In this document: piece after piece, positions 2,406-46,667 of the stretch
Layout of the letters: each line of letters opens with the position of its first letter
Numbering within the stretch: the first letter of the stretch is position 1
Origin: an uncultured Bacteroidota bacterium
Lineage (GTDB): Bacteria > Bacteroidota > Bacteroidia > AKYH767-A > OLB10
Direction: 5' to 3'
Assembly (NCBI GenBank): GCA_963814475.1
Contig: CAWFDA010000046.1
Location: forward strand, 666,940 to 730,939
Length of the DNA stretch: 64,000 bases
Program-made: the position numbers and the translations under genes
Notes under the pieces: generated by a model
The model's database searches: none
Told to the model about the DNA's origin: nothing
Seen by the model: only the letters and a program-made list of their open reading frames with translations

Positions 2406-2424
2406 TCGATTTCCGTCGGAAAAA

Positions 2425-3294: not shown

Positions 3295-3312
3295 TGATAA
3301 TGCTTTCATAAG

Positions 3313-8984: not shown

Positions 8985-9029
8985 TTTTTTAGGTTTTTAG
9001 TTTGTTCTTTTTAAGGATTGTTTGAAATA

Positions 9030-22913: not shown

Positions 22914-23184
22914 TAAACACGTCCTCCACGTTTTAGCTCATACTAACATACCACTTAAAAAATAGTACAGAAATAATAATAACAAAAACCTCCTGCGGTC
23001 AGTTATCTGAAGCTTGCTACTTTCGCAGATGATCGGATTTTGAAACCTAAAATATTTCAACTGAAACAAGCTTTCCAAAGATATCCAAAAGTAAAGAAAC
23101 CACAAAAACATCCTAATGTAATAGTTGCTGCTAGCTCAGTACTGGATATCAAATAAGAGTTAGCACACCTTTCAAATTTTTTAT

Positions 23185-24027: not shown

Positions 24028-24152
24028 ATTAACTGAATTTGATCGGAATACTATATAATTATAGTAAAGTTAATCAAAAACTTGAAATTACTCATTTTTT
24101 TCTATTTTTGTAATGCAATTTTTTCATTTTCATTTTTTTATCAATTTTTCAC

Positions 24153-24676
24153 ATGCAATTACAACACATTACCACAAAAATTCACGAAATCAGAGGCATG
24201 AAGGTCATGCTCGATCATGATTTGGCAATTCTTTATGAAGTAGAAACAAGGTCGCTTAAGCAGGCTGTGAGAAGAAATTCAGATCGCTTTCCTGAAGATA
24301 TTATGTTTCAACTAACTGAACTAGAAATCGATAGAATGGTATCACAAAATGTGATACCATCTAAAAGCTATTTTGGAGGAGCCAAACCATTTGCTTTCAC
24401 TCAAGAAGGAATTTCAATGCTTTCGAGTGTTTTAAGAAGCAAAAAAGCTATACTCACAAACATTTCTATCATGCGCCTGCCTGCAGCATGGCAGGTGCAT
24501 TTGTAATGATGCGCCAATTTGCACTTTCACATCGCGAATTAACTGAAAAACTCAAGGAAATGGAAACCAAATACGATCAGCATTTTCATACTATCTACGA
24601 AGCTAATGGCTATCTTATGAAAAACGATGAGGAGGACAAGAAACAAAAGAACCGCCGAAGGATTGGGTATAAATGA
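24153..24676 (+). pseudogene. ORF6N-domain protein, copy 1, disrupted by a 20 bp palindromic insertion at 24476-24495.
   Basis: The N-terminus ([13 protein letters not shown]...[11 protein letters not shown]) is 80-90% identical to copy 2. The frame breaks at SIMR|, and the tail ([35 protein letters not shown]) resumes in another frame. Confidence 0.8.
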
Positions 24677-24714
24677 CCAAAATAAAATAATTTAACTTTT
24701 AAAACATTTTTCAC

Positions 24715-25188
24715 ATGCAATTACAACACATCACCACCAAAATTCACGAAATCAGGGGCATGAAGGTCATGCTGGACTATGATCTGGCTGAAATGTATCA
24801 AGTCCCAACAAAAAGTCTCAATCTTAGTGTTAAACGGAATCTAAATCGATTTCCGGATGATTTTATGTTCCAACTTTCTCAAACTGAATGGCAAAGTTTG
24901 AGGTTTCAAAATGAAACCTCAAACAAACGGGGAGGTTCGAGGTATGTGCCATATGCATTTACAGAACAGGGTTTAGCCATGCTTAGTGGGATATTAAATT
25001 CTCCCATTGCTATCGAAGTAAATATCTCCATCATGCGGGCTTTTGTATTCATGCGACAATTTGCTCTTTCTCATCGTGAGTTAACGGAAAAACTCAAGGA
25101 AATGGAAACCAAATACGATCAGCATTTTCATACTATCTACGAAGCTATTGACTATCTTATAAAAAACGATGAGATGGACAAGAAATAA
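24715..25188 (+). CDS. ORF6N-domain protein, copy 2, intact tandem paralog.
   Basis: 157 aa with the full ORF6N N-domain and a conserved C-terminal helix region. Confidence 0.8.
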   Translation: MQLQHITTKIHEIRGMKVMLDYDLAEMYQVPTKSLNLSVKRNLNRFPDDFMFQLSQTEWQSLRFQNETSNKRGGSRYVPYAFTEQGLAMLSGILNSPIAIEVNISIMRAFVFMRQFALSHRELTEKLKEMETKYDQHFHTIYEAIDYLIKNDEMDKK

Positions 25189-25403
25189 AAGAAACGTCGG
25201 AGGATTGGGTTCAAATGACCAATAAATGTGATGGATAAATTACTCCAAAGACGTATTAAAAACCAATATTCAAAACGAAAAATACTTTAAAACTTTTTTT
25301 ACAAAATACAGAACTGAAAATTTAGGATATTTATTCGAGTTACCTGAAAATGCACTGACCAACACTTTAGAAGTTTTCCTAATAATTATGCATAACTAAT
25401 GTG

Positions 25404-26135
25404 CTATTTTGTGACTGCAGGAGCGTATCCAAAAAGGTAAGACACATTAATAGTAACACCTAAATTTTTTCCATCGGAAGCAGCTACGGCATACCCATTA
25501 TTGTAATGATCCACATAGTTTGGAGGTGTTTCTTCATAGTTGTTCACGAGTCCTTGGTTAATGATTAAATCGAGACCAATTCCGTTCTTAAATTGAACTC
25601 CCGCACCAATTATAAATCCCATATCTATTGGACTAAGATCATCTTTAATATCAGTTTTAAACTTCTCGGGGCTATTATATGAATCAATAACCAAATCTGC
25701 ATCCAGTAAAACACCTAATTGAAAGCCTGTTTGTAAATTAAAAATTCCTGCAACTTTAAATTTTACAGGAATGTAAAAGTCCAAGTAAGTCAATTTTTGA
25801 TTGAACGAAATGATATTATCATCGTCCCAGAATCCAAATTCCCATAGATAAAACCCTTTTCTTGCAATAGAGACAGAAGGATTAAGTGCTAGTTGTTCAG
25901 TCAAAGGCACCTGAACAATTATACCACCATGATAACCGGGACCAATATCAAATTCTTCGTTACCGGTAATCATTCTAACCCCTTGTCCCCAAAAAGGTCC
26001 GGCCTGAACTTTAGATTGTGCTAAAACTGTATTATCAGCCAAAAAGAATCCAACTCCCAACAAAACAATAGCAATTCTTAACGTTTTCGTTTTCATAGTA
26101 ACAATTATTAAGACAATATTCAGCAAAAAATTCAA
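25404..26135 (-). CDS. Outer membrane beta-barrel protein (porin-family).
   Basis: Signal peptide, alternating hydrophobic beta-strand pattern and a C-terminal aromatic-rich end. Confidence 0.5.
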   Translation of the reverse strand: MNFLLNIVLIIVTMKTKTLRIAIVLLGVGFFLADNTVLAQSKVQAGPFWGQGVRMITGNEEFDIGPGYHGGIIVQVPLTEQLALNPSVSIARKGFYLWEFGFWDDDNIISFNQKLTYLDFYIPVKFKVAGIFNLQTGFQLGVLLDADLVIDSYNSPEKFKTDIKDDLSPIDMGFIIGAGVQFKNGIGLDLIINQGLVNNYEETPPNYVDHYNNGYAVAASDGKNLGVTINVSYLFGYAPAVTK

Positions 26136-26186
26136 TTCAGCAATTCAAAAGTACAATAAATTATCAAATAAAGGTCAAAAACCAAA

Positions 26187-27533
26187 TTAGAACTTTCCAC
26201 CTGCCCCTCCGCCGCCAAAATCACCGCCACCAAATTCGGTTCCGGGTGCTTCGCCTGCATTTGAAAACCCAGTTGTTTGAGACACAATAAAAGCTTCTGC
26301 GTTAAGTAAACCTTGATTCTCGCCATCCTCATCAAAAGTAAATACCTTGTTGTTTTTCTTCAGATATCGAATCGCAAACCAAGAAACTAACAACATAATT
26401 AGCCCACCTAGAGTGATGGTATTCTCATAGGGAAAATCAGGATTGTAGAACTGGTAGGTGGCCACTGTTCCAACCAGGATGATTAATCCGGTGAGGAGAA
26501 ACAATCGGTCTTTCGTACGTAACCCCTGAATGATAAAAATAATTGGAAATAGGATCGTGCAAATAATAAAAATAAATGCCATGGGCAATCCTTTTCCTCT
26601 TACAGCAGACAATTCATACCTTTCAAGGTCATACTTTTTAGAATATAAAATTTCATTTTCAGCACTCAATTGGGACAATTCTTCATCACTCAAAGAGTTA
26701 AGAGTGTCTGAATACGAACTATTGATGATCTCGTGATTTGCATTTATAGACTTTTCAATAGCCACATACTCTGCGTTTTCGGACATATCAACAGAAGTTT
26801 CACTCAATAAAATATTTCCTTCTCGAACAACAAAATAATTCATACTTAAATAAATCATTAGTAAAGAAACCACTTTTAAAACTTTAAGAATATTTTTCCA
26901 ATACACGAAACGATCGTTTTGAAGCATTTTGTGTGAGAAAATTGCAATGCAACCAGAAGTAAAAAGAAAAATGAAAGGCATCAATAACTTCCCCAAATTA
27001 AAGTCAGCAGCGATAATGAATATCCAAACATAGAGACAAACAAGAGCCAAAAACGCGAGAAAAGAATCCATATAACGATAGGAAACATAAGCCAGCAAAG
27101 GGATACAAAGAAACATGATTAGAGTAGTGCTTGAAAAATCGGTGAATAATAAAATTCCGAAAACTACTAATGACATTGCTAAATATAAAAGGCAATCGTC
27201 AATTCCGGAACAGTAATGAAATTTGGTTTTAATAAAAAATTGAAGTGCAAAAAATAAAATTGCGGAACCAATCAAACATAAAACTCCAAAAACAATTTCA
27301 TTACTGAAAGGCACAGCAACCATAGCTCCCAAAATTCCAAGCGCAGAAGTAGCTAGAACAAAAGTAAAAATAAACAGTCCAATTCTGACAAATAAATTCG
27401 GAGAATAGAAATCTGGTTTGTAAGTTTCATTTATCTGCTTTAATTGATCTTCAGAAATAAGATTATTGTTCTTGAGTTGCAAAGATTTTGCCTTTATGTT
27501 TAAGGCGTCAATCCAATTTTTGTTGTAGCTCAT
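26187..27533 (-). CDS. Polytopic membrane protein with a Gly-rich C-terminus (possibly DUF4401-like).
   Basis: 448 aa with many TM segments and a C-terminal GGGDFGGGGAGGKF. It overlaps the start of the upstream gene in an operon arrangement. Confidence 0.5.
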   Translation of the reverse strand: MSYNKNWIDALNIKAKSLQLKNNNLISEDQLKQINETYKPDFYSPNLFVRIGLFIFTFVLATSALGILGAMVAVPFSNEIVFGVLCLIGSAILFFALQFFIKTKFHYCSGIDDCLLYLAMSLVVFGILLFTDFSSTTLIMFLCIPLLAYVSYRYMDSFLAFLALVCLYVWIFIIAADFNLGKLLMPFIFLFTSGCIAIFSHKMLQNDRFVYWKNILKVLKVVSLLMIYLSMNYFVVREGNILLSETSVDMSENAEYVAIEKSINANHEIINSSYSDTLNSLSDEELSQLSAENEILYSKKYDLERYELSAVRGKGLPMAFIFIICTILFPIIFIIQGLRTKDRLFLLTGLIILVGTVATYQFYNPDFPYENTITLGGLIMLLVSWFAIRYLKKNNKVFTFDEDGENQGLLNAEAFIVSQTTGFSNAGEAPGTEFGGGDFGGGGAGGKF

Positions 27534-28539: not shown

Positions 28540-28725
28540 TTAGAAAAATACATAAAAAAAGGGTCATTGGTCGTTGTCGGTGCGGAAGGGTCATTGAGTC
28601 ATTGGTCATTAGTCTTTGTCGGTGCGGAAGGGTCATTGAGTCATTGGTCGTTAAGTTTGGCGGAAGAGTCATTGGGTCGTTTTAATTGGCGGAAGGGTCA
28701 TTGAGTCATTGCTCTGATAAAAAAA
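28540..28725. repeat. Tandem ~57 bp repeats built from GGGTCATTGAGTCATTGGTC-type units (AGTCATT heptad family).
   Basis: GTCGGTGCGGAAGGGTCATTGAGTCATTGGTC occurs twice, followed by degenerate copies. The same heptad is seen at 9400-9465 in reverse complement and at 35820-35870. Confidence 0.8.
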
Positions 28726-29161
28726 ACCTTCTGGTGTTAGATAATCCACCTGAAGCAGACATTTTAAATTAGACATTGGACATTTTACATTCCCGCAAAG
28801 TATTATTTAAAATAAAAATTGCATGATTTAGAAAAATTTCCCTGTTGCAAATAAAGGGTTCATTTGCCATGGAAAATTTCTCAATGTGCATGAAACAGGT
28901 TGGTTCAAATGGCTAATGACAAAAAATGCAAAAGGAAGCAGCCGGATCATCAATTACAATTCATCATTTCCGACTGTTCCCTTCACAACTCACTTACCAG
29001 GAAAGTACCTAACGTAACGCTTGCCCGACTGACTAGGCGAGAATTACGAATTTGCTTCGCAATACGAATTTACGAATTACGAATGTCCGCCTTGATAGGC
29101 GGGGATTATGTCTGTGCGCCTTGATAGGCACGTGTGTGACCGGATAATCGCGCACACGTTG

Positions 29162-30313
29162 TTACAATGTCCCTCGGCGGGCTTGTTCTGCTTCGATGGA
29201 TTCAAACAAAGCTTTAAAGTTTCCTTTCCCGAAGGACTTTGCTCCTTTGCGTTGAATAATTTCAAAGAATAATGTGGGACGATCTTCAACCGGTTTAGTA
29301 AATATTTGTAATAGGTATCCTTCTTCATCACGGTCTACCATAATTCCGAGTTTTTTCAACACTTCCATATCTTCTTCAATGATTCCTACTCTTTCAGCAA
29401 CGGTATCATAGTAGGAACCGGGAACGTAGAGAAATTCTACCCCTCGTTTGCGCATTTCAGCAATAGTTAAAACAATATTATTAGTTGCAACAGCTATATG
29501 TTGACAACCGGGTCCCTTATAAAAATCCAGATATTCTTCGATCTGAGATTTCTTTTTGCCATAGGCAGGTTCATTTATTGGAAATTTGATTCGTCCGTTA
29601 CCATTCGACATCACCTTACTCATAAGCGCAGTGTATTCAGTGGAAATATCTTTGTCATCAAAGGTAACCAAGTTGGCGAATCCCATTATTTCTTCATAGA
29701 ATTTTGCCCATTTGTTCATTCCTCCAAGTTCAACATTACCCACCATGTGATCAACATATTCGAGTCCGGCCGAAACGGGATTATATTCTGATTCCCACTT
29801 AACAAACCCGGGAAGAAAAACTCCATTGTAAGCTTAACGCTCTACAAAAATGTGAAGTGTTTCGCCATAGGTATGAATTCCCGACATCACCACTTTCCCA
29901 TTGTCATCTTCAATGGTTTTTGGTTCCATAAAAGGCTTTGCTCCTCTTTTAACTGTTTCATTAAAAGACTTAGTTGCATCATCCACCCACAAAGCAATAA
30001 CTTTAACACCATCGCCATGCAAACGAATGTGATGAGAAATTTCACTATCAGGATCCATTGGTGTAGTGAGAACAAGTCGAATTTTTCCTTGTTGCAGAAC
30101 ATATGAAGTACGATCACGACTACCGGTTTCTAATCCCCGATAAGCAAGTGATTGAAACCCAAAAGCTGTTTTGTAATAATGAGCTGCTTGCTTCGCATTG
30201 CCTACATACAATTCCACATAGTCGGTACCATTGATAGGCAAAAAATCTTGTGCTTTTTCAAACACTTTATCTCCGGAGTAGGAGTAATTTTGTACTGTTT
30301 TAAGATTGTCCAT
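29162..30313 (-). pseudogene. hppD: 4-hydroxyphenylpyruvate dioxygenase split into two ORFs by a frameshift near 29746-29834.
   Basis: The N-terminal half (29834-30313) and C-terminal half (29162-29746) are both typical VOC-fold HPPD sequences ending ...[16 protein letters not shown]. Confidence 0.75.
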
Positions 30314-30342
30314 TTAATTAAGATTTTCAGTTACACAAATTA

Positions 30343-34019: not shown

Positions 34020-34090
34020 TACATAATTGTTTAATCGTACTCGTCTGACGCGCCGGCCCGTGGCATGGGACGAGTATGCAGGAATTTTAC
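34020..34090. repeat. Dispersed copy, in inverted orientation, of the hairpin core from the 1190-2290 array.
   Basis: CGTACTCGTCTGACGCGCCGGCCCGTGGCATGGGACGAGTATG is approximately the reverse complement of CTCGTCCCACGCC..GGCC.GCGC.TCAGACGAGTACG. Confidence 0.75.
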
Positions 34091-34604: not shown

Positions 34605-34800
34605 CAAAAAGCTACCCGGCAACCTTTGGGCATGGTTATTCCTCAGGCGTGATGTTTCTCACATCCTCGTCCCAAACCACAGGCCAGCGCGTCAGAGGAC
34701 GAGAGTATGGGGCATGGTTATTCCTCAGGCGTGATGTTTCTCACATCCTCGTCCCAAACCACAGGCCAGCGCGTCAGACGAGGACGAGAGTATGGGGAAA
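34605..34800. repeat. Two tandem ~62 bp copies of a variant hairpin element (CTCGTCCCAAACCACAGGCCAGCGCGTCAGACGAG).
   Basis: The direct repeat GGCATGGTTATTCCTCAGGCGTGATGTTTCTCACATCCTCGTCCCAAACCACAGGCCAGCGCGTCAGA(C)GAGGACGAGAGTATGGGG occurs twice. Confidence 0.8.
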
Positions 34801-34899: not shown

Positions 34900-35352
34900 G
34901 TGTTAAATAAATTTGTGATGAAAAAGCATGAAAATATTTTTAACGAAAGTGTAGTTGCTTACGGCACTCATTCCAACAATTCTATTTATTCAATTATGGA
35001 TACCATCCGCAGTGGTATTGTTTTTTCAAAATTCAATAAAGTACTTAACAGCTTTCCTTTCAGTTTATCCGATTGGTCTTGGTTTTTAGGAATGTCGGAA
35101 CGCACTATGCAACGCTACCGCAAAGAGAAAAAAACCTTTGATAAACTGCAGTCTGAAAAAATTTTAAACATTTACATACTTTACAACCGCGGTGTGGAGG
35201 TATTTGGAGGTGCTGAAAATTTCAACACATGGCTCGATACTCCCAACACAGCTCTTGGAGGTGAAGTGCCCAAAAAACTTTTGGATAACAATTTCGGTAT
35301 AGAGTTTCTCAACGATACGTTAACGCGTATTGAGCATGGCGTTTCTGCATGA
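34900..35352 (+). CDS. Xre/MbcA/ParS-type antitoxin (DUF2384 toxin-binding domain).
   Basis: C-terminal WLDTPNTALGGEVPKKLL...LTRIEHGVSA signature. It overlaps the RES gene by 4 nt (ATGA). Confidence 0.7.
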   Translation: MLNKFVMKKHENIFNESVVAYGTHSNNSIYSIMDTIRSGIVFSKFNKVLNSFPFSLSDWSWFLGMSERTMQRYRKEKKTFDKLQSEKILNIYILYNRGVEVFGGAENFNTWLDTPNTALGGEVPKKLLDNNFGIEFLNDTLTRIEHGVSA

Positions 35353-35828
35353 TTGTATTCAGGTTATGTCGTGAAGTTTATAGCAGTGACCTGAATGGAA
35401 AAGGTGCTGAAAAAAGTGGAGGACGGTGGAACAGCAAGGGCATTCCTATGCTTTACACTTCTGAAACAAGAGCCTTGTGTCTGGCTGAAATGATGGTAAA
35501 TCTTCCATTAAATTTGATTCCTAAGGATTTCTCAATGGTTTCAATTTTGGTGCCGGATGAACTGCAGACACACACAATAAAAATCGAACAATTACCATCC
35601 GATTGGAAAATGTTTCCTCACTCCTATTCTACCCAGAAATTAGGAGATGATTTTATTAATGAAGGAAAATTTATTGCTCTCAAAGTACCCTCAGTAGTTG
35701 TGCCCTTAGAGTATAATGTCATAATCAACCCAAGACATACAGATATGGGAAAGGTGAAAATTATTGAAGTGAAAAAATTTTCAATTGATGAGCGACTAAT
35801 TGCGAAGAGTGGGGAAAAAAGTCATTGA
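35349..35828 (+). CDS. RES-domain toxin (MbcT/ParT-like NAD+-targeting toxin).
   Basis: GGRWNSKGIPMLYTSETRALCLAEMMV matches the RES N-terminal motif. The 159 aa ORF is translationally coupled to the antitoxin. Confidence 0.75.
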   Translation: MIVFRLCREVYSSDLNGKGAEKSGGRWNSKGIPMLYTSETRALCLAEMMVNLPLNLIPKDFSMVSILVPDELQTHTIKIEQLPSDWKMFPHSYSTQKLGDDFINEGKFIALKVPSVVVPLEYNVIINPRHTDMGKVKIIEVKKFSIDERLIAKSGEKSH

Positions 35829-35872
35829 GTCATTAAGTCATTGAGTCATTAAGTCATTGAACTTTGGTTAGG
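35820..35872. repeat. AGTCATTGAGTCATTAAGTCATT heptad repeat.
   Basis: The tandem (A/G)GTCATT units are visible directly. Confidence 0.8.
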
Positions 35873-35929
35873 TTGAAAAGAATGAAGATTGATCGGGACG
35901 AGGAAAAAAATTGAAGATAGTAGATGTAC

Positions 35930-36135
35930 TTTTATACTTTCAATTTTCAGTTTTCAATTCGCGTTGACAGCGGTAGAAGCATTATATTCGGGTCGAAGGG
36001 AAAACTGAAATTTGAAAACTGAAATTTGAAAAGTTTTGGTAGGTTGGGACAAAGTTAAAACTGAAAAGCAGGCCCGAATCTATAGAGGCGGGCCTGTCCG
36101 AATCTATAGAGGCGGGCTTGCCCGATAAAGAAGAC
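35930..36135. repeat. MITE-like element with TTTTCAGTTTTCAATT / AATTGAAAACTGAAA inverted termini, followed by a 2x direct repeat GCCCGAATCTATAGAGGCGGGC.
   Basis: TTCAATTTTCAGTTTTCAATTCGCG...GGGTCGAAGGGAAAACTGAAATTTGAAAACTGAAA. Related copies lie at 2290-2405 and 37260-37500. Confidence 0.7.
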
Positions 36136-36168
36136 AAGTCAGAAGTAATGAAAAGATTTTTTTTCTAA

Positions 36169-37220
36169 TTACAGCCCCTCTTTTACAGCAGGAATCACTT
36201 TCGAACCAATTAAATTTATAGACTCCTTCAACTGATCATGAGATAATCCAGCATTTTCCATTTGAAAAGTAAGTCTAGAAATTCCACCCAGTGCTTTACT
36301 ATGACGAAGTATTTTTTCCGCCACTTCATCAGGATCACCCACTATTAAAGCACCTCTAGCACCGGTTTGTGAATCAAAATGAGGACGTGTTACAGGCGGC
36401 CATCCCCGTTCTTTGCCAATTCGTGTAAATGTTTCGGCATAACCCGGGATAATAATTTTCAACAGCTTCTTTAGAATTTGCAGCAACGTACCCAAGAGAA
36501 TGGAATCCCACTTTGAGTTTGTCTGGGGAGTGACCGGCTAATTGCCGGCTTGTCTGTATACATCAACCAGCGGACCGAAAACGATGTGTTTCTCCACCAA
36601 TAATTGCAATCATTAAAGGTAGTCCCAATATTCCAGCTCTGACAAATGATGCCGGTGTACCTCCTACTCCAAGCCAAATTGGCAATGGATCTTGCAGTGG
36701 TCGTGGATAAATATTGTTGTTTTACAAGGCAGCACGAAATTTACCTGACCAGGTAACGATTCATTATCTCTTATTTTCAACAAGGAGCTCTAATTTTTCA
36801 GCAAAATAGTTCATCGTAGTCTTTAGTATTCAAAGCCAAACAAGTGGAAATGCTTCAATAAATGAACCACTTCCAACCACCATTTCAGCACGACCCTGAG
36901 AAATAAGATCGAGTGTTGCAAAATTTTGAAAGACTCTTACCGGATCGGCCGCACTCAATACTGTAACCGCGCTAGTTAGTCTGATTTCGTCTTTGTTCTG
37001 GCTGCTGCAGCTGCAAGAATAATGGTTGGTGCCGAATCAAGAAATTCCTTTCGGTGATGTTCACCAATACCAAACACATCTAGGCCGACCTGATCAGCAC
37101 ATTCAATCCGTTCTAATAAGTGAGCTAGTGCATCACTTTGCTCCGGTTTTTAGCCGTCAGCTTGAATCGACGGTGACTTGCAGAAGCAAAACTATCTATT
37201 CCTATTTCCATTTTAATTAA
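36169..37220 (-). pseudogene. LLM-class flavin-dependent oxidoreductase (luciferase-like monooxygenase), heavily frameshifted.
   Basis: The C-terminal 108 aa ORF (...GALIVGDPDEVAEKILRHSKALGGISRLTFQ...) is typical LLM. Upstream fragments are scattered across frames to about 37220. Confidence 0.6.
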
Positions 37221-37259
37221 GCGAATGTGGGAGCAGTTTCCCGGTTAAAGGACGAAATA

Positions 37260-37500
37260 ACTTCAGTTTTAAAATTTTCAGCTTTATATTTGGGTCGAAG
37301 GGAAAACTGAAGAGTTAAAATTGAAAAGTTAAAAGTACGAATTATCTTCAATTTTATTTTTTCAGTTTTCAATTTTCAATTCGCGATGAGGGCGAATTGA
37401 AGCATAAATTCAGATCAAAGCGAAAATTGAAAAGCCTGCCCGACCCCCGATAGCCTTTGCGATGATTTGGGCGGGTTAAAATTGAAAAGTACAAATAAAC
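37260..37500. repeat. Two adjacent MITE-like elements of the same TTTTCAGTTTTCAATT family.
   Basis: TTGGGTCGAAGGGAAAACTGAAG... and TTTTTTCAGTTTTCAATTTTCAATTCGCGATGAGGGCG...AAAATTGAAAAG. Confidence 0.7.
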
Positions 37501-37514
37501 TTACTTTCAAATTT

Positions 37515-38645
37515 TCATTCACTCACAGAAACCGGTTCCTTCACAGAAACCTTAAGTGATCCAACAAATTCATCAAAAAGGTATCTTGAATCATCGGGTC
37601 CGGGAGCTGACTCGGGATGGTACTGAACGGAAAAAGCTTTTTTGTTTTTCACTCTTATTCCCTCAATAGAATGATCGTTCAGATTCACATGTGTTACTTC
37701 AATCACATCAGATTTTTCCACATCTTCACGACTAATAGCAAATCCATGGTTTTGAGAGGTAACTTCGGAATGACCGATAATCATATTTTTTACCGGATGA
37801 TTAATTCCTCTATGACCGTTGAACATTTTATAAGTTGAAATCCCACAGGCTTCGGCGAGTAATTGATGGCCTAGGCAAATGCCAAAAACAGGTTTATCGG
37901 CAGCCAGAATATCTTTCACCGTTTGAACAACATCCGGCATAACCGCAGGATCACCAGGGCCATTAGAAATTAAGAAACCATCGGGCTCCCAGGCATTCAT
38001 CACCTTGAAGGATGCGTTGTAAGGAAATACCTGAACATAGCATCCTCTATCTGAAAGGCAACGGAGGGTATTAGTTTTGACACCTTCATCCATCACAGCA
38101 ACTTTTAGAGGAGCCGATGGATCGCCAAAGAAATACGGTTTGGCAGTAGAAACAGTCGATGAAAGCTCGAGTCCGGCCATAGAAGGCACTTTTGCGAGTA
38201 TTTCCTTCAGTTTATCTGTATTTAATTCATCGGAAGAAATGATTGCATTCATTACGCCTTTATCTCTGATATGGCGCACTAACGCTCTGGTGTCGATATC
38301 TGAGATGGCAACCATATTTTGCTCAATAAAATAGTCGTTTAAAGAGCTATCGGCGCTTTTGCGGGAATAGTGCTGACTAAAGTTCCGACAAATGAAACCG
38401 GCAATTTTAATAGAACTTGATTCCGACTCATCAAATTTAATTCCGTAGTTGCCGATGTGCACGTTGGTGGCGATGAGCAACTGACCTTCGTAAGAGGGGT
38501 CGGTAAAGACTTCCTGGTAGCCGGTCATTCCGGTATTAAAACATATTTCGCCTGTAGCGGTTCCTACTTTTCCAGCTGATTTACCGTAAAAAATAGTTCC
38601 ATCCTGGAGTAAGAGTATTGCCGGGAATTTAGGGGTATATTTCAT
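37515..38645 (-). CDS. carA: Carbamoyl-phosphate synthase small (glutamine amidotransferase) subunit.
   Basis: 376 aa with the CarA N-domain and class-I GATase motifs (GICLGHQ, ...HPE). Confidence 0.85.
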   Translation of the reverse strand: MKYTPKFPAILLLQDGTIFYGKSAGKVGTATGEICFNTGMTGYQEVFTDPSYEGQLLIATNVHIGNYGIKFDESESSSIKIAGFICRNFSQHYSRKSADSSLNDYFIEQNMVAISDIDTRALVRHIRDKGVMNAIISSDELNTDKLKEILAKVPSMAGLELSSTVSTAKPYFFGDPSAPLKVAVMDEGVKTNTLRCLSDRGCYVQVFPYNASFKVMNAWEPDGFLISNGPGDPAVMPDVVQTVKDILAADKPVFGICLGHQLLAEACGISTYKMFNGHRGINHPVKNMIIGHSEVTSQNHGFAISREDVEKSDVIEVTHVNLNDHSIEGIRVKNKKAFSVQYHPESAPGPDDSRYLFDEFVGSLKVSVKEPVSVSE

Positions 38646-38741: not shown

Positions 38742-39258
38742 TTATTCGCCCGTTTCTTCTTCAGTATCAGCCTTTTTAGCTTTCGCCTTTTTAGCAACCG
38801 GAGCTTCAGCAGCACCATCGCCATCGGCTTTCTTAGTTTTACCACGACGCGTAGTCTTCGCTTTCTTAGCAGGAGCAGAAGTTTCCTTCACCATCAACGT
38901 GTTATAATCAACCAACTCCATCATGCACATTTCAGCAGCATCACCAAACGATTACCTGTTTTAATGATACGGGTATATCCACCCGGACGCTCGCCGATTG
39001 TACTGGCAACATCTTTGAACAATTCTGAAACAGCTTCCTTATTTTGAAGGAAACTAAAGACAGTACGACGAGAGTGCGTAGAATCCGTTTTCGATTTAGT
39101 GATTAATGGTTCTACATACTTTGCGCAAGTGCTTTAGCTTTTGCAACCGTAGTGTTGATTCTTTTATGCAGAATCAATGAAGAAGCCATATTCGAGAGCA
39201 TCGCATCTCTGTGACTGGACGTTCTTCCTAAATGATTTACTTTTTTACCGTGACGCAT
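38742..39258 (-). pseudogene. rplQ: 50S ribosomal protein L17 with two apparent frameshifts and an A/K-rich C-terminal extension.
   Basis: [21 protein letters not shown]... from the ATG at 39258. The frame breaks near KALAQ (39150) and near GNRL (38940). The C-terminus is ORF 38742-38930. Confidence 0.7.
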
Positions 39259-39309
39259 TTTATTTAATCTTTTCTATCCTATTTGGATTTACAGGCATTC
39301 GTTTAATTA

Positions 39310-40305
39310 TCAGTCTTTTTCAAGTTTGTATTTGGAAACATTCATTCCAAAATTCAGGTTCTTACTTCTCACTAGTTCTTCCAATTCAGTAAGTGATTTT
39401 TTACCGAAATTTCTGAATTTAAGAAGGTCATTTTTAGAATAAGAAACCAGGTCTCCAAGAGTTTCAACATCAGCAGCTTTAAGGCAGTTAAGAGCTCGAA
39501 CAGAAAGATCCATATCAACCAATTTAGTTTTCAGCAACTGACGCATGTGAAGTGATGACTCATCGAACTCTTCAGTTGGAGTTTTAGGTTTGCTTTCGAG
39601 AGTGATTTTCTCATCAGAGAACAACATGAAGTGATGAATCAGAATTTCAGCTGCTTCTTTCAAGGGCATCTTTTGGATGAATAGATCCATCGGTAGCGAT
39701 TTCAAGAACCAGTTTTTCATAATCGGTCTTTCTGTTCAACCCTGTAGTTTTCTACGTTGTAACGAACGTTTCTGATTGGGGTGAAAATAGAATCGATAGC
39801 AATTGTTCCGATAGGATAGCTATTCGATTTATTCTCTTCAGCAGGAACATAACCACGACCTTTATCGATAGTGATATCAATTTGAATTTTAACACTCGTT
39901 TCCATGTTACAGATAACCAAATCAGGATTCAGAACCTGGAAAGCAGAGGTATGCTTAGCGATATCACCGGCAGTAAATTGATTTTTGCCGTTGATAGTTA
40001 CCTGAACTTTTTCAGAGTCGGTTGATTCAATTTGCTTTTTAAAGCGAACCTGCTTCAGGTTCAGAATGATTTCAGTAACGTCTTCAACAACACCCTTGAT
40101 AGTAGAAAACTCATGATCAACACCTGAAATTTTCACGGTGGTGATAGCATGACCTTCAAGAGATGAAAGGAGAATTCTCCTTAGCGCATTTCCGATAGTG
40201 ATTCCATAACCGGGTTCAAGTGGACGGAACTCAAATGTACCAAGATGTTCAGTTGGACTGAAGCATGATCACTTTATCCGGTCTTTGAAACGCTAATATT
40301 GCCAT
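39310..40305 (-). pseudogene. rpoA: DNA-directed RNA polymerase alpha subunit, split by at least 3 frameshifts.
   Basis: [17 protein letters not shown] at 40305 is followed by a frame break. ORFs 39717-40136 and 39310-39720 carry the rest (...[25 protein letters not shown]...). Confidence 0.8.
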
Positions 40306-40379
40306 TTTTATATCCTTCTTTTTTTAGTTTTTTCTTAATAATTAATCACTTCCTTCCGGGGAAGGGCACTTACAACTGA

Positions 40380-40985
40380 TTACTTAGAGTACAACTCGAC
40401 AATCAGTTGTTCTTTAATATTTTCGGTAATGTCGGCACGGGCAGGAGCACTTACGAACTTACCTTCCATTTTGCTGTCATCCCACTCTAACCAAGAATAA
40501 CGGGTGGTTCTAGATCTCAAAGATATCACCAATAACTTGTGAAGATTTTGATTTTTCTCTAACACCAACCTGATCACCTGCTTTCAGAGTATAAGAAGGA
40601 ATATTTACCACTTTACCATTCACAATAATGTGACGGTGAGAAACCAGCTGACGGGCAGCTGAACGGGTTGGAGCGATACCTAAACGATAAACCACATTAT
40701 CTAAACGTGATTCAATTAACTGAAGCAAGTTTTCACCGGTGATACCTTCTTTTCTAGAAGCACGGTCGAAAGTTTTCGCAAACTGACGCTCGAGGATTCC
40801 ATAGGTGTATTTCACCTTTTGTTTTTCCTTCAGCTGAGTAGCATATTCAGAAAGCTTTGAACGCTTCTTAGATTGTCCGTGCTGTCCCGGAGGATAGTTT
40901 CTCTTCTCGTAGTTCTTATCAGGTCCGTAAATCGGCTCTCTGAACTTTCTTGCAATCTTGGTCTTTGGTCCTATATACCTGGCCA
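40380..40985 (-). CDS. rpsD: 30S ribosomal protein S4, with an apparent frameshift near the C-terminus (~40520-40570).
   Basis: [15 protein letters not shown]... The C-terminal 40 aa (...[17 protein letters not shown]...) lie in an overlapping ORF in another frame. Confidence 0.75.
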
Positions 40986-41039
40986 TGAAATCTTGTTTTA
41001 TTAAACTTAAATAAATGCTTTGATATACTATTAAATTCT

Positions 41040-41425
41040 TCTGCGTTTTGGAGGGCGGCAACCGTTGTGTGGAATCGGAGTGATATCCACAATTTCGCTT
41101 ACTTCAAGACCTGCAGTTGTGCAAGTGTTCTGATTGCAGATTCACGTCCTGAACCTGGTCCTTTCACAAACACTTTCACTTTTCTCATACCTGCATCAAA
41201 GGCAACTTTAGAGCAATCCTGAGCAGCCAACTGAGCAGCATAAGGAGTGTTTTTCTTAGATCCTTTGAATCCCATTTTACCTGCAGAAGCCCAGGATACT
41301 ACCTGTCCGGTAGTATTGGTGATGCTAATGATGATATTGTTAAATGTAGCGTTGATATGAGCTTCGCCAACAGACTCCACTTTTACCACTCTTTTTTTAA
41401 CGGTAACTTTTGCTGTTTTTGCCAT
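41040..41425 (-). CDS. rpsK: 30S ribosomal protein S11, with an apparent frameshift about 20 codons before the end.
   Basis: 108 aa ORF. The conserved tail ...[16 protein letters not shown] is present downstream in a different frame (41040-41100). Confidence 0.75.
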
Positions 41426-41472
41426 TATCGTTATTTGTTCCCGAGTTACAATTAAGTCCCCGGATGATTATT

Positions 41473-41850
41473 TTACTTAGTTACTTTTTTCTTGTTAGCA
41501 ACAGTTTTTCTCTTACCTTTACGGGTACGACAGTTGTTTTTCGTTCTTTGTCCGCGAACAGGTAAACCAATACGGTGACGAACACCGCGGTAGCAACCGA
41601 TATCCATCAAACGTTTGATGTTTAATTGAACTTCAGAACGAAGTCCACCTTCAACTTTGATGTTATCGTTGATATACGTTCTGATTTTTGTCAGTTCATC
41701 ATCATTCCATTCCTGAACTTTTTTGCTAAAGTCGATATTACTATCGGTAAGAATTTTCTGCGCTGTTGAACGGCCTATTCCGAAGATATAGGTGAGGCCT
41801 ATTTCACCTCTTTTGTTTTTTGGTAAGTCAATACCAGCAATACGAGCCAT
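41473..41850 (-). CDS. rpsM: 30S ribosomal protein S13.
   Basis: [10 protein letters not shown]... in a 125 aa ORF. Confidence 0.9.
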
Positions 41851-41881
41851 TTATATTCCTTTAGTTATTATAATTATAGTA

Positions 41882-41998
41882 TTAACCCTGACGCATCTTA
41901 AAGCGAGGATTCTTTTTGTTGATCACATAGAGACGACCTTTACGTCTAACGATTTTGCAATCAACACTTCTTTTCTTTAATGAGGGTTTTACTTTCAT
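41882..41998 (-). CDS. rpmJ: 50S ribosomal protein L36.
   Basis: Reverse translation gives [38 protein letters not shown]. Confidence 0.85.
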
Positions 41999-42009
41999 TT
42001 GGTAATATA

Positions 42010-42228
42010 TTATTTGTACCTGTATGTAATTCTTCCTTTTGTTAAATCATAGGGTGACATTTCCACCTTTACTTTATCGCCGGGAAGAATTTTGATGTAA
42101 TTCATCCTCATTTTTCCGGAAATATGGGCTATGATCTCGTGCCCGTTTTCCAGTTCCAATCGGAACATTGCATTCGACAATGCTTCTACAATTGTTCCGT
42201 CTTGTTCGATGACTCCTTGTTTAGCCAT
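42010..42228 (-). CDS. infA: Translation initiation factor IF-1.
   Basis: 72 aa with [41 protein letters not shown].... Confidence 0.9.
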
Positions 42229-42247
42229 TCAATTTTTTGACTGTTAC

Positions 42248-43140
42248 TTATATTCTTTGCTCAGGTTTATATTTTGAGTCTTCAGCTTTTTCAATTTTTT
42301 CAAATGATGAGAGTACATCTGCTTTATTTTCTCCTATTGCAACGGTGTGTTCGAAGTGTGCGGAAGGTTTCAAATCTGTCGGTGTAACGATTGTCCATCC
42401 ATCATTCAGTTGTTTGACCTGCCTTTTTCCGGCGTTGATCATAGGTTCAATGGCTATTACCATTCCTGTTTTCAGGAGCATGCCAGTACCTTTTTTTCCG
42501 TAATTAGGAACTTCAGGTTTTTCGTGCAAGCTTCATTCCCAACTCCATGTCCAACCAATTCTCTCACTACTCCAAAGCCATTTGCTTCGGCATGATCCTG
42601 AACGGCTGCACTGATATCTCCAATCCTGCAACCTGACACTGAGCCTTTTCGATACCTATGTAAAAGGCATTCTTTGGTAACACGAATTAGATTTCGACGT
42701 TTCGGTGTTCACCTCTCCCACCGTGAATGTATACGCTGAATCTCCGAAGAAACCATCTTTTATCACACCACAATCGATAGAAACCACATCACCATCCTTT
42801 AGTTCGCGATTGCCCGGTATACCGTGTACCACTTCAGCATTGACTGAAATGCACAACGATCCGGGAAAACCACCATAGCCTTTAAAGGCAGGGATAGCTT
42901 TTTGATCTCTTATGAAGGTTTCCGCCAATGCATCAAGCTCGATGGTTTTCACACCGGGCTTAAGAATTGCGGCCACTTCCGCTAATGTATCTCCAACAAG
43001 TAAAGAACTAACTCTTATTAACTCTATTTCTTCGGGAGTTTTGTAGATAATCTGCAATTTGACTCCTTTGTTTTTATATTTTAATAATAGCAATAACCTA
43101 CTACCGGTGCCTTAAACTGCGGCTCCGACAGCAGATGCTC
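42248..43140 (-). pseudogene. map: Methionine aminopeptidase, type I, frameshifted.
   Basis: The N-terminal part (42656-43093) and C-terminal part (42248-42529) lie in different frames with a gap between them. Confidence 0.75.
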
Positions 43141-43151
43141 TGCCTTTGATT

Positions 43152-44460
43152 CTACCTGTTTTCATAAGATCCATCGTAATGACGCATCAGCAAATGACTT
43201 TCAATTTGCTGAAGCGTATCTAACACAACACCTACCAAAATCAGTAGTGAGGTTCCACCATAAAACTGTGCAAAGTTACTATTTACTCCGAAAAGTTTCG
43301 CAAATGTGGGTAAAATTGCCACAAACGCAAGGAATAATGAACCCGGTAAAGTAATTTTAGACATCACATCATCAATAAACTCAGCTGTTTTCTTACCGGG
43401 TTTAACACCGGGAATAAAACCTCCATTTTTCTTCATATCTTCAGCCATTTGATTAGGATTCACCGAAATAGCAGTATAGAAATAAGTAAAGAGGATAATC
43501 AATATTGCGAATGTAATGTTGTACCCAAAAGAGGTGAAATCAGTAAATGCACCTGCAAAACCTTGCCATGAAGCAGATTCAGGGAAAAACTGAGCGATGG
43601 TTGCCGGAATAAACATAATTGCCTGAGCAAAGATGATTGGCATTACACCTGCAGCATTAACTTTAAGAGGAATGTACTGACGAACGCCACCATATTGTTT
43701 ATTACCAACAATTTTTTTAGCAAACTGAACCGGTATTCTTCGGGTACCCTGAACCAAGAGAATTACAGCAGCCAACCACAGCAAAGAGGGCAACAATTTC
43801 AACCAGGAATACAACCAATCCACCACCTTCGTTCAAACGTGACAAGAACTCATCTCGTCAATGATTGAAGGAAGTCTGGCAATGATACCAATCATGATAA
43901 TGAAGTGATATACCATTTCCGATTCCTTTTTCAGTAATCCTCTCCCCTAACCACATTACAAATAATGTTCCTGCGGTAAGGATAAGAATGGAAGTAATCC
44001 AGAAACATGGTGCCATCCATGATGATTGCATTCAGGAGACTGTGAACGTAAATTCACAATATATCCGGGAGCCTGACCAAGAGTTACAAAACCGTAAGCC
44101 AACGGGTGATTTGATTCATTTTCTTACGACCACTTTCTCCTTCTTTCTGGAGTTTCTGGAAATAAGGAACAGCAATACCTAATAACTGCACCACAATGGA
44201 GGCAGAAATGTAAGGCATAATACCTAATGCAAAAATGGAAGCCTGCGAGAAGGCTCCTCCTGCAAACATATCAATCAATCCAAGAATTCCGCCTTCAGAC
44301 TGAGCTTGTAAATTAGCCAGTCCTGCAGGATCACACTCCGGGAAGCACAATATGTGCTCCGAGTCTGTAGATAACAATAAATCCCAAAGTGTTCAGGATT
44401 CTTGACTTTCAGATCTTCGATCTTAAAAATATTCCGAATTGTAGTTATTAGGTTCTTCAT
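43152..44460 (-). pseudogene. secY: Preprotein translocase SecY, fragmented by several frameshifts.
   Basis: ORFs 44275-44460, 44084-44377 and 43152-43826 carry SecY segments. The 43826-44084 stretch contains further out-of-frame pieces. Confidence 0.8.
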
Positions 44461-44910
44461 TTACCTGTAGCTGTAATTGTTCCACCCAGAGATTCAATAG
44501 CTGATTTTGCTGATTCTGAAAATGCATGAGCAGTGATATTCACTTTAGTTTTTAATTCACCTCTTCCAAGAATTTTAACTCTGTCGCGTCTAGAAGCAAG
44601 ACCCATTTCTACAAACACTTCGTGATTGAATATCAGTGATATTGTGTTTGTCAACCAAACCTTGAATCATATCAAGATTGACGCCGTTATATTCGATTCT
44701 GTTGAGGCTTTTGAAACCAAATTTTGGAAGTCTTCTTTGAAGTGGCATCTGACCACCTTCAAATCCAACTTTAGAGCTGTAACCAGATCTTGACTGGGCA
44801 CCTTTATGACCTCTTGTTGAAGTTCCACCACGACCGGATCCTTGTCCGCGACCGATTCTCTTTCTCGATTTTACCGAGCCTTTGGCAGGTGTTAAATTGC
44901 TAAGATTCAT
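44457..44910 (-). pseudogene. rplO: 50S ribosomal protein L15, frameshifted at ~44600-44650.
   Basis: [26 protein letters not shown]... (44590-44910). The C-terminus is in the overlapping ORF 44457-44654. Confidence 0.8.
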
Positions 44911-44944
44911 TTTAAAGAATGTCTTAAATATTGTTAATTACTGA

Positions 44945-45128
44945 TTATGCTACTTTTTCAACAGAAACGAGATGCTGAACAGATCTCAACCATTCCCAGA
45001 ATTTGTGGGGTGGCTTCTTTCTCAACCGAGTGATTCATTTTACGAATCCCGAGAGCTTTGAGCGTACGCTTTTGAACTGCGGGGCGATCGATGCCGCTTC
45101 TGATTTGTTTGATAATAACTTTTCCCAT
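44945..45128 (-). CDS. rpmD: 50S ribosomal protein L30, with a likely frameshift near the C-terminus.
   Basis: MGKVIIKQIRSGIDRPAVQKRTLKALGIRKMNHSVEKEATPQILGMVE, then ...VQHLVSVEKVA in the +1 frame. Confidence 0.7.
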
Positions 45129-45196
45129 TTTATTTCCGGAGCAAGTCCGAGATTTTATTTAAATTGATACTTAAAATAAATTCCGTAAGATATTGA

Positions 45197-45715
45197 TTAC
45201 CCTTCAAATATTCTTTGCATAGCAACTCCTCTTTGTTGAGAAACGCCAATTGCATCACGCATTTGAACGAGCGCATCGATAGTAGCTTTCACTACGTTGT
45301 GAGGGTTAGAAGAACCTTTAGATTTGGCAAGTACATCGGTAATACCAACGCTCTCCAAAACGGCACGCATGGCACCACCGGCAATTACACCGGTACCGGG
45401 AGCGGCTGGTTTCAGGAGCACAAGAGCACCACCGAATTTTCCAATTTGCTCATGAGGAACAGTGCCTTTAGCCACAGAAACCTTAACCAGGTTTTTCTTA
45501 GCATCATCAACACCTTTGCTCACTGCATCAGTAACTTCTTTTGCTTTACCAAGACCATAACCAACCACACCTTTTTCATCACCTACCACAACGATAGCTG
45601 AGAATGTAAATGCGCGACCACCTTTAGTAACTTTTGTTACCCTGTTAATTGCAACGAGCCTGTCTTTTAGCTCAATTTCACTGGTTTTAACCTTTTTTAC
45701 ATTTGATCCTAACAT
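45197..45715 (-). CDS. rpsE: 30S ribosomal protein S5.
   Basis: Intact 172 aa ORF ending with the ...AMQRIFEG-type tail. Confidence 0.9.
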
Positions 45716-45722
45716 AGTAGTC

Positions 45723-46081
45723 TTAGAATTTTAATCCTGCGTTTCTTGCACCTTCAGCAAGTGATTTAACACGTCCGTGATAAAGGTAGCCTCCACGGTC
45801 AAAAATTACATCGGTTAGTCCGGCAGCCATGGCTCTTTCGCCAAGCAACTTTACCAACTACAGATGCTTCTTCAATTTTACTTTTGTTCCACTTCAGCGA
45901 TTTCTTCTTCGCGTGAGGAAGCTGCTAACAGCGTTTTACCGGCTTCATCATCGATTAGCTGGGCATAAATCTGCTTATTGCTTCTAAACACCGACAAACG
46001 AGGGCGAGTAGAGGTTCCGGTTACAATCCTACGGATTCTTTTACGGATGCTTTTTCTTCTTATTACTTTTCTGGATTCCAT
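45723..46081 (-). pseudogene. rplR: 50S ribosomal protein L18, frameshifted after ~67 codons.
   Basis: The N-terminus is ORF 45878-46081. The C-terminus ...[28 protein letters not shown] lies in another frame and ends at 45723. Confidence 0.8.
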
Positions 46082-46089
46082 TGAATCAA

Positions 46090-46646
46090 TTATTTTTTAG
46101 CAGCTGACTTACCAGCTTTACGTCTTAATGTTTCACCTACGAATTTAATACCTTTTCCTTTGTAAGGCTCAGGCACTCTTAAAGAGCGGATTTTAGCGGC
46201 AACCTGCCCGAGAAGTTGTTTATCGTAACTTTCGAGGGTAATGATTGGGTTCGAACCTCTTTCCTGACGGGTAGCAACTTTGATTTCGGTAGGCAATTCA
46301 AAAACCACATGGTGAGAATAACCTAAAACGAGATCCAGCAATTGCCCTTGATTGGTAGCACGGTAACCCACACCTACTAATTCCTGCTCCACTTTATAAC
46401 CGGTAGTAACACCTGTATCATGTTGGCAATAAGAGAACGGTAAAGACCGTGCAATGCCTTATGTCTTTTTTGTTCGGTAGCTCTTTCAACAAGCAATGTC
46501 AGAACCTTCAACTTTCACTGATACTCCATCTTCCAGCTTTTGGTCGAGTGTACCTTTTGGTACCTTTAACGGTAACATCAGATCCTTTAAGATCGATGGT
46601 CACCCCTGCAGGGACAGGTATCGGGTAATTTTCCTATACGGGACAT
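46090..46646 (-). pseudogene. rplF: 50S ribosomal protein L6, with a frameshift near the N-terminus.
   Basis: MSRIGKLP at 46646, then a frame break. The remaining 100 aa are in ORF 46090-46392, and the intervening segment is out of frame. Confidence 0.8.
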
Positions 46647-46667
46647 ATTCTAAAACTTATTATTTGA

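Follow-up and report, generated by a model that had tools for sequence, protein, structure and literature searches.

Organisation of the two loci

The window analysed here is a 64-kb stretch of contig CAWFDA010000046.1 from an uncultured Bacteroidota bacterium, and its full length is meant wherever we refer to it. Our subject is a set of short intergenic repeats, which we call TTTTCAR elements after the heptamer in their arms. They lie at two loci 34 kb apart and in both orientations. At the first locus, a gene for an LLM (luciferase-like monooxygenase)-class flavin-dependent oxidoreductase of the Bac_luciferase family is located between carA (37515-38645, minus strand) and a gene for a RES-domain toxin, and elements are found on either side of it. 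At the second locus, two elements flank a tandem array between an arginase-family gene and a fatty-acid hydroxylase gene. Proteins from metagenome-assembled genomes (MAGs) of uncultured Bacteroidota/Bacteroidia share 84-96% identity with CarA.

The features are listed in Table 1. An initial annotation of this DNA had reported four repeats resembling MITEs (small transposable elements with inverted repeats). They are seen in the sequence, and their boundaries are refined here as elements A to D. That list was incomplete, as the partial element E and the fragment A′ have to be added. The LLM coding sequence spans 36169-37211 and does not reach 37220, the position given there.

Table 1 TTTTCAR elements and associated features (positions in the window unless a contig is named; E, nhmmer E-value; z, fold compared with shuffles; TRF, Tandem Repeats Finder)
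Feature	Position	Strand	Details
Element E, partial	1090-1151	-	5′ half of core and T-rich arm; E 5e-5
Tandem array flanked by E and D	1218-2290		units of 80/93 nt, super-period 266, 3.4 copies, 98%
Element D	2289-2386	-	core 2306-2347, short arms, extra heptamer run 2357-2386; E 8e-17
Octamer run AGTCATTG/AGTCATTA, 5 units	35819-35860		TRF period 8, 5.1 copies; starts within the RES toxin stop codon
Element A, full copy	35926-36037	+	seen in the sequence; E 1e-18
Element A, 5′ arm	35926-35959		GTAC + TTTCAAT/TTTCAGT
Element A, core	35958-36000		
Element A, 3′ arm	36000-36037		GAAAACT/GAAATTT
Fragment A′ (TTGGGACAAAGTTAAAACTGAAAAG)	36043-36067	+	similar to the core's 3′ end plus arm
GCCCGAATCTATAGAGGCGGGC in two copies of 24 nt, one long GC-rich hairpin	36068-36124		repeat proper 36072-36125
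LLM-class flavin-dependent oxidoreductase gene	36169-37211	-	10 frameshifts, 1 in-frame stop
doxX remnant, last ~32 nt	37217-37248	-	local alignment with L006 1146-1182; adjoins element B
Element B, deletion derivative	37261-37338	+	E 0.02; z -3.4
Element C, full copy	37347-37492	+	E 5e-15; z -3.8; best direct match 84%
Element C, 5′ arm	37347-37381		
Element C, core	37380-37421		
Element C, 3′ arm	37422-37433 + 37476-37492		
Stub of a third tandem unit (GTACAAATAAACTTACTTTCAAATTTTCA)	37489-37517	+	overlaps the carA stop codon
TTTTCAGTTTTCAATTTTCAATT in IMG/VR contigs	L019 228-250; L020 6897-6919; L021 487-509; L022 820-842		

Anatomy of the TTTTCAR elements

The polarity of the repeat unit is fixed. 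A T-rich heptamer run (TTTTCAA/TTTTCAG) is followed by a unique core of ~45 nt and by a complementary A-rich heptamer run. The core has the shape TTCGCG-TGA-GCG...GAAGCAT...GGGTCGAAGG and is set between the opposed TTTTCAR runs, in which the heptamers read TTTCAAT/TTTCAGT on the 5′ side and GAAAACT/GAAATTT on the 3′ side. The unit is predicted to form a long AT-rich stem whose loop holds the core. The inverted arms of A, B, and C are 20-34 nt long and match at 79-95%, and the number of heptamers is variable (3 vs 5 within A). TRF calls a period of 7 at 2357-2383 and 37347-37381 and a period of 14 at 36000-36032 and 37303-37334; these calls comprise the arms only and exclude the core. The predicted folds of A, B, and C are better than those of dinucleotide shuffles (z -2.9 to -4.6). 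Unit length ranges from 62 to 146 nt, and the units are non-coding, being overlapped only by spurious open reading frames (ORFs) of ≤51 aa. An alignment of the five copies with MAFFT misplaced D, so a manual alignment and nhmmer were used.

Element A: The non-repetitive core of this copy is TTCGCGTTGACAGCGGTAGAAGCATTATATTCGGGTCGAAGG. Its arms are complementary at 88% over 24 nt and at 95% over 20 nt, and its fold reaches z -2.9 (plus strand) and -4.6 (minus strand). In the fragment A′, 28 nt are 82% identical to positions 37416-37443 of element C. A′ runs directly into the GCCCGAATCTATAGAGGCGGGC hairpin, the direct repeat of which (TRF period 24, 90% matches) had already been noted as a twofold repeat and is borne out. 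This hairpin has a predicted energy of -39.5 kcal/mol (z -5.0).

Element B: The 5′ hairpin half of the core (CGCG..TGA..GCG) is missing, and TATATTTGGGTCGAAGGG and the 3′ arm are retained. The element terminates in GTAC and is 82% identical to A over 57 nt.

Element C: In this copy, CAGATCAAAGCG stands where TTCGGGTCGAAGGG is expected. A GC hairpin of 42 nt (37434-37475) is nested in the 3′ arm, and once it is removed, the arm is colinear with that of B. In A and C, the GC hairpin starts at the same junction, where AAAAYTGAAAAG (TGAAAAG) gives way to C.(G/T)GCCCGA. Elements B and C and the stub form a head-to-tail series with direct repeats at 37239, 37324, and 37478 (66-71% identity) and a common linker, G(G/T)AC + AAWTAWMC.

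Element D: This copy is located ~40 nt downstream of the stop codon of the arginase-family gene. As originally described, it has the opposite orientation and abuts the tandem array, which starts after TTGAAAAC. It is 82% identical to A over 62 nt.

Element E: This partial copy lies at the far end of the array, ~60 nt upstream of the hydroxylase gene, and is 84% identical to C over 45 nt. It keeps the 5′ hairpin of the core, but the stretch enclosed by two GAAG/AAAG direct repeats is missing. B and E are internal-deletion derivatives, and from their sequences they look like slippage deletions.

A conserved core had been ascribed to all copies. B, however, lacks the CGCG..TGA..GCG half, and C shows the departure described above. 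The mosaics (A-A′-GC hairpins, B-C-stub, and D-array-E) lie strictly between genes.

A dispersed repeat family

Pairwise identity among the copies is 74-84% over 45-82 nt. With nhmmer, five copies were found in the window (E 1e-18 to 0.02) and none in ~150 kb of the corresponding loci of relatives. The 16-mer TTTTCAGTTTTCAATT occurs 22 times with up to 3 mismatches, compared with 5.6 ± 2.6 expected occurrences. The degenerate 30-nt core pattern TTCGNNWTGASNGCGN{3,5}GAAGCRTWANWT has 4 matches in the window and 0 in 100 shuffles.

A common heptamer simple-sequence repeat might have expanded locally on separate occasions, with products that look alike by chance, in which case there would be no family at all. 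Intergenic heptameric repeats are indeed over-represented in some bacteria, and slippage has been proposed as their cause (PMC4692102). Four unrelated IMG/VR contigs (GC 22-51%) carry the exact 23-mer TTTTCAGTTTTCAATTTTCAATT but not the core, which argues that heptamer runs arise independently, and other heptamer and octamer tracts exist in the window. However, a non-repetitive core of 30 nt common to four copies at two loci, with 0 expected, effectively refutes a chance resemblance, and the five nhmmer matches point the same way. We regard this explanation as extremely improbable. The TTTTCAR elements form a genuine family of dispersed, non-coding repeats that have inverted symmetry within the unit.

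In the contig L019, TTTTCAGTTTTCAATTTTCAATT lies ~25 nt upstream of a gene start with a Shine-Dalgarno sequence.

Outside the window, the family is not apparent in the databases searched. The core pattern with matching flanks is absent from 185,579 species-representative genomes (GTDB), in which a single chance match was obtained in a Burkholderiales MAG. It has 0 matches in JGI metagenome contigs and 0 in IMG/VR viral contigs. A second pattern, YGGGTCGAAGKKAAAAYTGAA, gave 6 matches in metagenomes, none with similar flanks. Searches with blastn returned nothing from plasmids and only AT-rich noise from phages (E = 7e-3).

Both loci in related genomes

The relatives used for comparison were L002 (GCA_016722525.1), L003, L005, L006 (ENA ERZ27240680), L008 (Logan, 90% nt identity), and L023 (Logan). 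At both loci, the elements are missing from the orthologous intergenic regions of relatives that are 77-83% identical. The spacer between the LLM and RES genes measures 110 nt in L006 vs ~340 nt in the window, where it contains the octamer run, A, A′, and the GC hairpins. In L002, hxlR, doxX, and the LLM gene are all missing, and the stop codons of carA and RES are 30 nt apart. At the array locus, the distance between the arginase-family and hydroxylase genes is 53 nt in L023 vs 1394 nt in the window, and the block 1082-2419 (E, array, and D) has no counterpart in L023. Because the spacers of L006/L002 and L023 are shorter and the block 1082-2419 is absent, the elements at both loci sit in DNA that the relatives lack.

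The history of the LLM locus can be read from L006, in which the order is carA, hxlR (opposite strand), doxX, an intact LLM gene (343 aa), and then RES and Xre in convergent orientation. With blastn, positions 1-200 of L006 correspond to 37723-37524 of the window, 1146-2204 to 37248-36179, and 2350-3278 to 35788-34860. The match extends 37 nt upstream of the LLM start and thus includes the last part of doxX, which forms the right edge of a loss of ~940 nt comprising hxlR and most of doxX. Today, ~270 nt (B, C, and the stub) occupy the place of the lost genes. Given the synteny with L006 and the doxX remnant, the ancestral locus held hxlR-doxX-LLM.

The LLM gene had initially been proposed as possible cargo of the elements. 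Since L006 carries an intact LLM gene at the same place and in the same orientation between carA and RES, and since a doxX remnant is kept in the window, the comparison with relatives instead indicates an ancestral resident of the locus. An integron cassette with attC-like sites was also considered for the LLM gene and was ruled out by synteny.

Gene content downstream of carA differs among L002, L003, L005, L006, and the window, and this region is therefore variable in the lineage, whether or not elements are present. In L003 and L005, lpd follows carA directly.

The carA-lpd segment, which corresponds to 29-37.5 kb of the window, is empty in L003 and L005 and contains RES/Xre, Por-tail proteins, and an H+-PPase in L002. 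In L006, it additionally holds hxlR-doxX-LLM and an amino-acid permease. A pair of an Xre-family antitoxin and a RES-domain toxin adjoins the variable region in the window (34900-35828), L002 (11152-11789), and L006 (2325-3220). The pair is kept in three relatives; the RES ORF of the window is 5 codons longer, its end running into the AGTCATTG repeat.

Frameshifts in the LLM gene

Proteins were aligned to the DNA with a frameshift-aware dynamic programme, using P0121 as the reference for LLM and the proteins of L005 and L023 for other genes. Relative to P0121, the LLM gene has 10 frameshifts in 1.03 kb (8 insertions of 1-2 nt and 2 deletions) and one in-frame stop, and after correction of the frame, it is 83% identical. 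The sequence therefore does contain the many frameshifts reported initially, although such frameshifts are not confined to the LLM gene.

Relative to the L005 proteins, frameshifts were found in secY (9), map (6), rplF (4), rpoA (3), rplQ, rpsK, and rplR (2 each), and rpsD, rplO, and rpmD (1 each). This amounts to 31 frameshifts in the ribosomal-protein, secY, map, and rpoA genes at 38.8-46.65 kb, nearly all of them +1. Relative to the L023 proteins, sucC has 3 frameshifts and the arginase-family gene 2. As in LLM, insertions of the +1/+2 type predominate in these genes. A single T or A at a non-homopolymer site accounts for most of the 22 insertions and 4 deletions that the window shows in a nucleotide comparison with L008, which has intact genes. 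Frameshifts are absent from the hydroxylase gene and from the less conserved neighbouring genes carA, TamB, and those for M16 and M48 peptidases. Stretches with broken genes are 38800-46650, 3260-4200, and 29160-30320, and an HPPD-like gene is split in two ORFs.

Since essential genes that are broken in the same way cannot be pseudogenes, we take these indels as errors in the consensus sequence. Their patchy distribution over the most conserved genes would fit a consensus or polishing artefact of a metagenome contig of the long-read type. Furthermore, the frame-corrected LLM protein is closer to the outgroups P0122/P0124 (80.0%/78.8%) than the intact P0121 is (78.4%/76.6%), and hence there is no sign of relaxed selection. 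The frameshifts in the LLM gene are most likely indel errors of the assembly or consensus and not biological decay.

Three observations weigh against this assignment. The LLM gene has an in-frame stop at 36722, whereas none accompanies the 36 frameshifts in housekeeping genes. Its frameshift density, 9.7 per kb, is the highest in the window. In addition, its upstream doxX/hxlR context has been lost. They would suit a recent pseudogene, in which the element-associated loss of hxlR and doxX removed the operon context and indels have been accumulating since. The doxX remnant shows that the upstream operon was destroyed, and L002, which is wholly without LLM, shows that the gene is dispensable in the lineage. 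Yet the same type of indel occurs at 6.7-7.3 per kb in secY, map, and rplF, an excess of amino-acid divergence is not seen in the relative-rate comparison, and the frameshifts fall generally in conserved genes such as sucC, rpoA, and secY, as a consensus artefact predicts. A real pseudogene is thus rather unlikely, and the initial description of LLM as degraded is not supported. In general, frameshifted genes in this contig are no evidence of decay, and calls of pseudogenes or degraded cargo need read-level confirmation.

Transposition, RNA function, or slippage

We considered whether the elements are true MITEs, that is, non-autonomous derivatives of an insertion sequence (IS) elsewhere in the genome, which would be mobilised in trans via heptamer-rich terminal inverted repeats (TIRs). 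The copies near LLM would then be independent insertions. The size of 80-150 bp, the inverted arms of A, B, and C, the intergenic position in both orientations at two distant loci, and the absence from the orthologous sites of relatives are in favour of this, and GTAC recurs at unit boundaries (35926, 37335, and 37489). On the other hand, no target-site duplication (TSD) is visible at any homology boundary of A to E, arm length varies by whole heptamers, D and E are without a significant hairpin, and common junctions link B, C, and the stub in tandem. The coreless heptamer runs in unrelated viral contigs indicate that such termini are not element-specific. Nor was a transposase, an integrase, or a domain of the REP-associated tyrosine transposase (RAYT)/Y1 type found among the window ORFs of ≥120 aa outside the ribosomal-protein block. 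GTAC is not rare either (142 observed vs ~158 expected in the window), and a role as a special junction or target site was ruled out on this basis. True MITEs are, in our view, unlikely. Of the non-autonomous transposable family proposed initially, its reality, inverted symmetry, and absence from relatives remain, whereas no TSDs are visible and the ends are heptamer runs of variable number.

An ORF6N-domain protein is encoded at 24715-25188 amid ORFs without a Pfam match (23449-24027 and 26187-27533), and the region 22257-27533 may be an island. The ORF6N domain is common in antirepressor-like proteins of phages or mobile elements.

Alternatively, the hairpins could be maintained as functional RNA or terminator modules, which terminate or stabilise the carA, LLM, RES, and arginase-family transcripts or encode a small RNA. 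All copies lie within ~20-100 nt of gene ends, and downstream of both LLM and carA, a GC hairpin is succeeded by a U-rich heptamer tract on the minus strand. For LLM, the GCCCGAATCTATAGAGGCGGGC hairpin has -33.1 kcal/mol (z -3.2) on this strand, and the tract CUUUUCAGUUUU then follows, ~45 nt downstream of the stop codon. From its shape only, this hairpin with CUUUUCAGUUUU is a plausible LLM terminator. Downstream of carA, the stem that precedes CUUUUCAAUUUUC is weaker and no better than shuffles (z +0.17). A box similar to TAnnTT(T/C)G is also present in the core (in B, TATATTTG) and resembles the -7 promoter element of Bacteroidota. A sigma-70 promoter formed by TTGACA...TATATT in the core was ruled out, as the spacer is ~13 nt and the promoter scan stays at background.

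Several results speak against such a function. Rfam 15 gave 0 matches at gathering score in the whole window, and at E ≤ 10, the region 35800-37600 yielded only noise (14-25 bits vs thresholds of 36-211). A known riboswitch or small RNA family, which had been named as a possible refutation of the repeat family, was thus not found. The orientation relative to neighbouring transcription is inconsistent (B and C antisense to carA/LLM, D and E sense), and the copies are too few for covariation (3-4 informative). The scan for promoters and terminators is at background level. Hence, functional RNA modules are improbable as the general explanation, and a dedicated RNA gene is unlikely because of the inconsistent orientation and the lack of an Rfam match.

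We favour a family of short intergenic repeats that is restricted to one lineage, non-coding, and hairpin-forming, of the same general kind as MITEs or as repetitive extragenic palindromic (REP) sequences and bacterial interspersed mosaic elements (BIMEs), with LLM as a resident gene and its frameshifts most likely an artefact. This reading is probable, though by no means secure. The units would have been gained in this lineage, and their present remodelling would be due mainly to replication slippage and to illegitimate recombination between short repeats. Remodelling would have expanded two intergenic regions and, at the carA-LLM junction, gone along with the loss of hxlR and doxX. A GC hairpin with TTTTCARTTTT on the transcribed minus strand probably terminates LLM and perhaps carA.

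The following points count against the favoured explanation. The folds of D and E are no better than those of shuffles (z about +0.3; D +0.36), and only 5-6 copies at two loci are visible within 64 kb. Relatives that are 77-83% identical offer no precise empty site, as their intergenic DNA is not alignable, and for the same reason, gain in this lineage is indistinguishable from loss in the relatives. The consensus scan for terminators and promoters called none of the proposed terminator sites, the loops being too long for its rule.

A further proposal is that this lineage carries a modular system of tiny mobile hairpin elements, which nest in or target heptamer palindromes. They would spread by a hairpin-directed or single-stranded-DNA-directed route without a transposase of the TIR/TSD type, reshape intergenic DNA, and delete hxlR-doxX. 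The nesting is illustrated by the GC hairpins after TGAAAAG and by the 45-nt core in the loop of the TTTTCAR palindrome. We consider this proposal speculative and hardly likely.

Motifs like ..GCCCGA../..GATAG..GGCGGG are common to the small GC hairpins at 29085-29135, 36068-36124, and 37434-37475, all of which immediately follow a heptamer run. These hairpins may represent a separate small nested repeat family.

If the favoured family holds, it is another lineage-specific palindromic intergenic repeat, here in a MAG lineage of activated-sludge-type Bacteroidota. It would also provide a concrete case of repeats that coincide with the loss of hxlR and doxX and with intergenic expansion at the kilobase scale.

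Other repeats in the window

Every unit of the tandem array holds a GC-rich hairpin of the form CTCGTC...GACGAG. We ruled out a reading of the 93-nt array as clustered regularly interspaced short palindromic repeats (CRISPR), as the presumed spacers are themselves repeated. Hairpins of the family CTCGTC(C/T)...GGCC(A/G)GCGC...GACGAG also occur at 34039-34080 and 34628-34797; besides the tandem array, the family thus includes an isolated copy and a 2x82-nt repeat. They open with a CGTC-like tag but misfit the published geometry of CGTC-REPs (PMC3733652).

Other intergenic short tandem repeats are located at 9028-9458, 28562-28711, 29045-29095, and 35819-35860, and none of them is present at the loci of relatives. 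With TRF, no comparable tandem repeats were found in L002, L003, L005, and L006. An AGTGACC/AGTGTTT repeat spans ~340 nt, and AATGACY, GGTCATT/GTCATTG, GAATTAC, and AGTCATTG repeats are also present. The GGTCATT/GTCATTG repeat is interspersed with the motif GCGGAAGG, which recalls CGAAGGG of the core. GGTCATT is the same heptamer as TTGGTCA of the short tandemly repeated repetitive (STRR) sequences of cyanobacteria.

Comparison with known systems

Bacterial MITEs include the Correia elements of Neisseria, the pneumococcal RUP, and the cyanobacterial Nezha, and they can supply terminators or promoters to neighbouring genes. Like MITEs, the TTTTCAR elements are 80-150 bp long, non-coding, intergenic, present in both orientations, and lineage-restricted, and A, B, and C contain inverted repeats that are predicted to fold into long hairpins. 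In contrast to MITEs, they show no TSDs and no sharply delimited ends, and their arms are tandem heptamers of variable number. The copies are partly head-to-tail, number 5-6 in the window, and have no related IS or transposase seen in the 64 kb.

The GC hairpin followed by a U-rich tract on the transcribed strand downstream of LLM and carA resembles intrinsic terminators. The likeness is one of shape alone: the loops are long, C/A/G interrupt the U tract, itself a heptamer repeat, and the arrangement does not occur in every copy.

REPs are 20-40 bp long, are tagged at one end by GTAG or CGTC, and consist of a GC-rich stem of at least 8-9 bp with a short loop (PMC3733652). CGTC-type REPs without a dedicated transposase have been reported from Bacteroidetes (Di Nocera et al. 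2013, PMC3733652). As in REPs, BIMEs, and REPINs (PMC3733652; PMC3116915, Bertels and Rainey 2011), extragenic palindromes are arranged in mosaics, often at the 3′ ends of genes, and their abundance is uneven among relatives. Unlike REPs, the TTTTCAR elements are ~100 nt long and AT-rich, have a 45-nt core in the predicted loop, and carry no GTAG/CGTC tag, and no RAYT was found in the window ORFs scanned. The CTCGTC...GACGAG hairpins are only superficially like CGTC REPs, having a 6-bp stem and an interior of ~24 nt.

Intergenic heptameric repeats are known as the STRR of Calothrix/Nostoc and as GGGAATC in Xanthomonas, and slippage is the proposed cause (PMC4692102). As in these simple-sequence repeats, tandem heptamers are confined to intergenic DNA, inverted pairs can form stem-loops, and the length varies among relatives (PMC4692102). 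The TTTTCAR elements differ in their host phylum, the Bacteroidota, in the heptamer itself, and in the added conserved, non-repetitive 45-nt core with fixed polarity. Elhai and co-workers reportedly described, in 2008, small dispersed repeats nested in the heptamer repeats of cyanobacteria (Nostoc). The nesting of GC-hairpin modules in or after the heptamer arms recalls the mosaics of BIMEs and these cyanobacterial repeats. If modular mobile hairpins did shape the locus, they would be a Bacteroidota counterpart of the cyanobacterial STRR/small-dispersed-repeat phenomenon. The TTTTCAR elements add one more case to a known kind, the small palindromic intergenic repeats.

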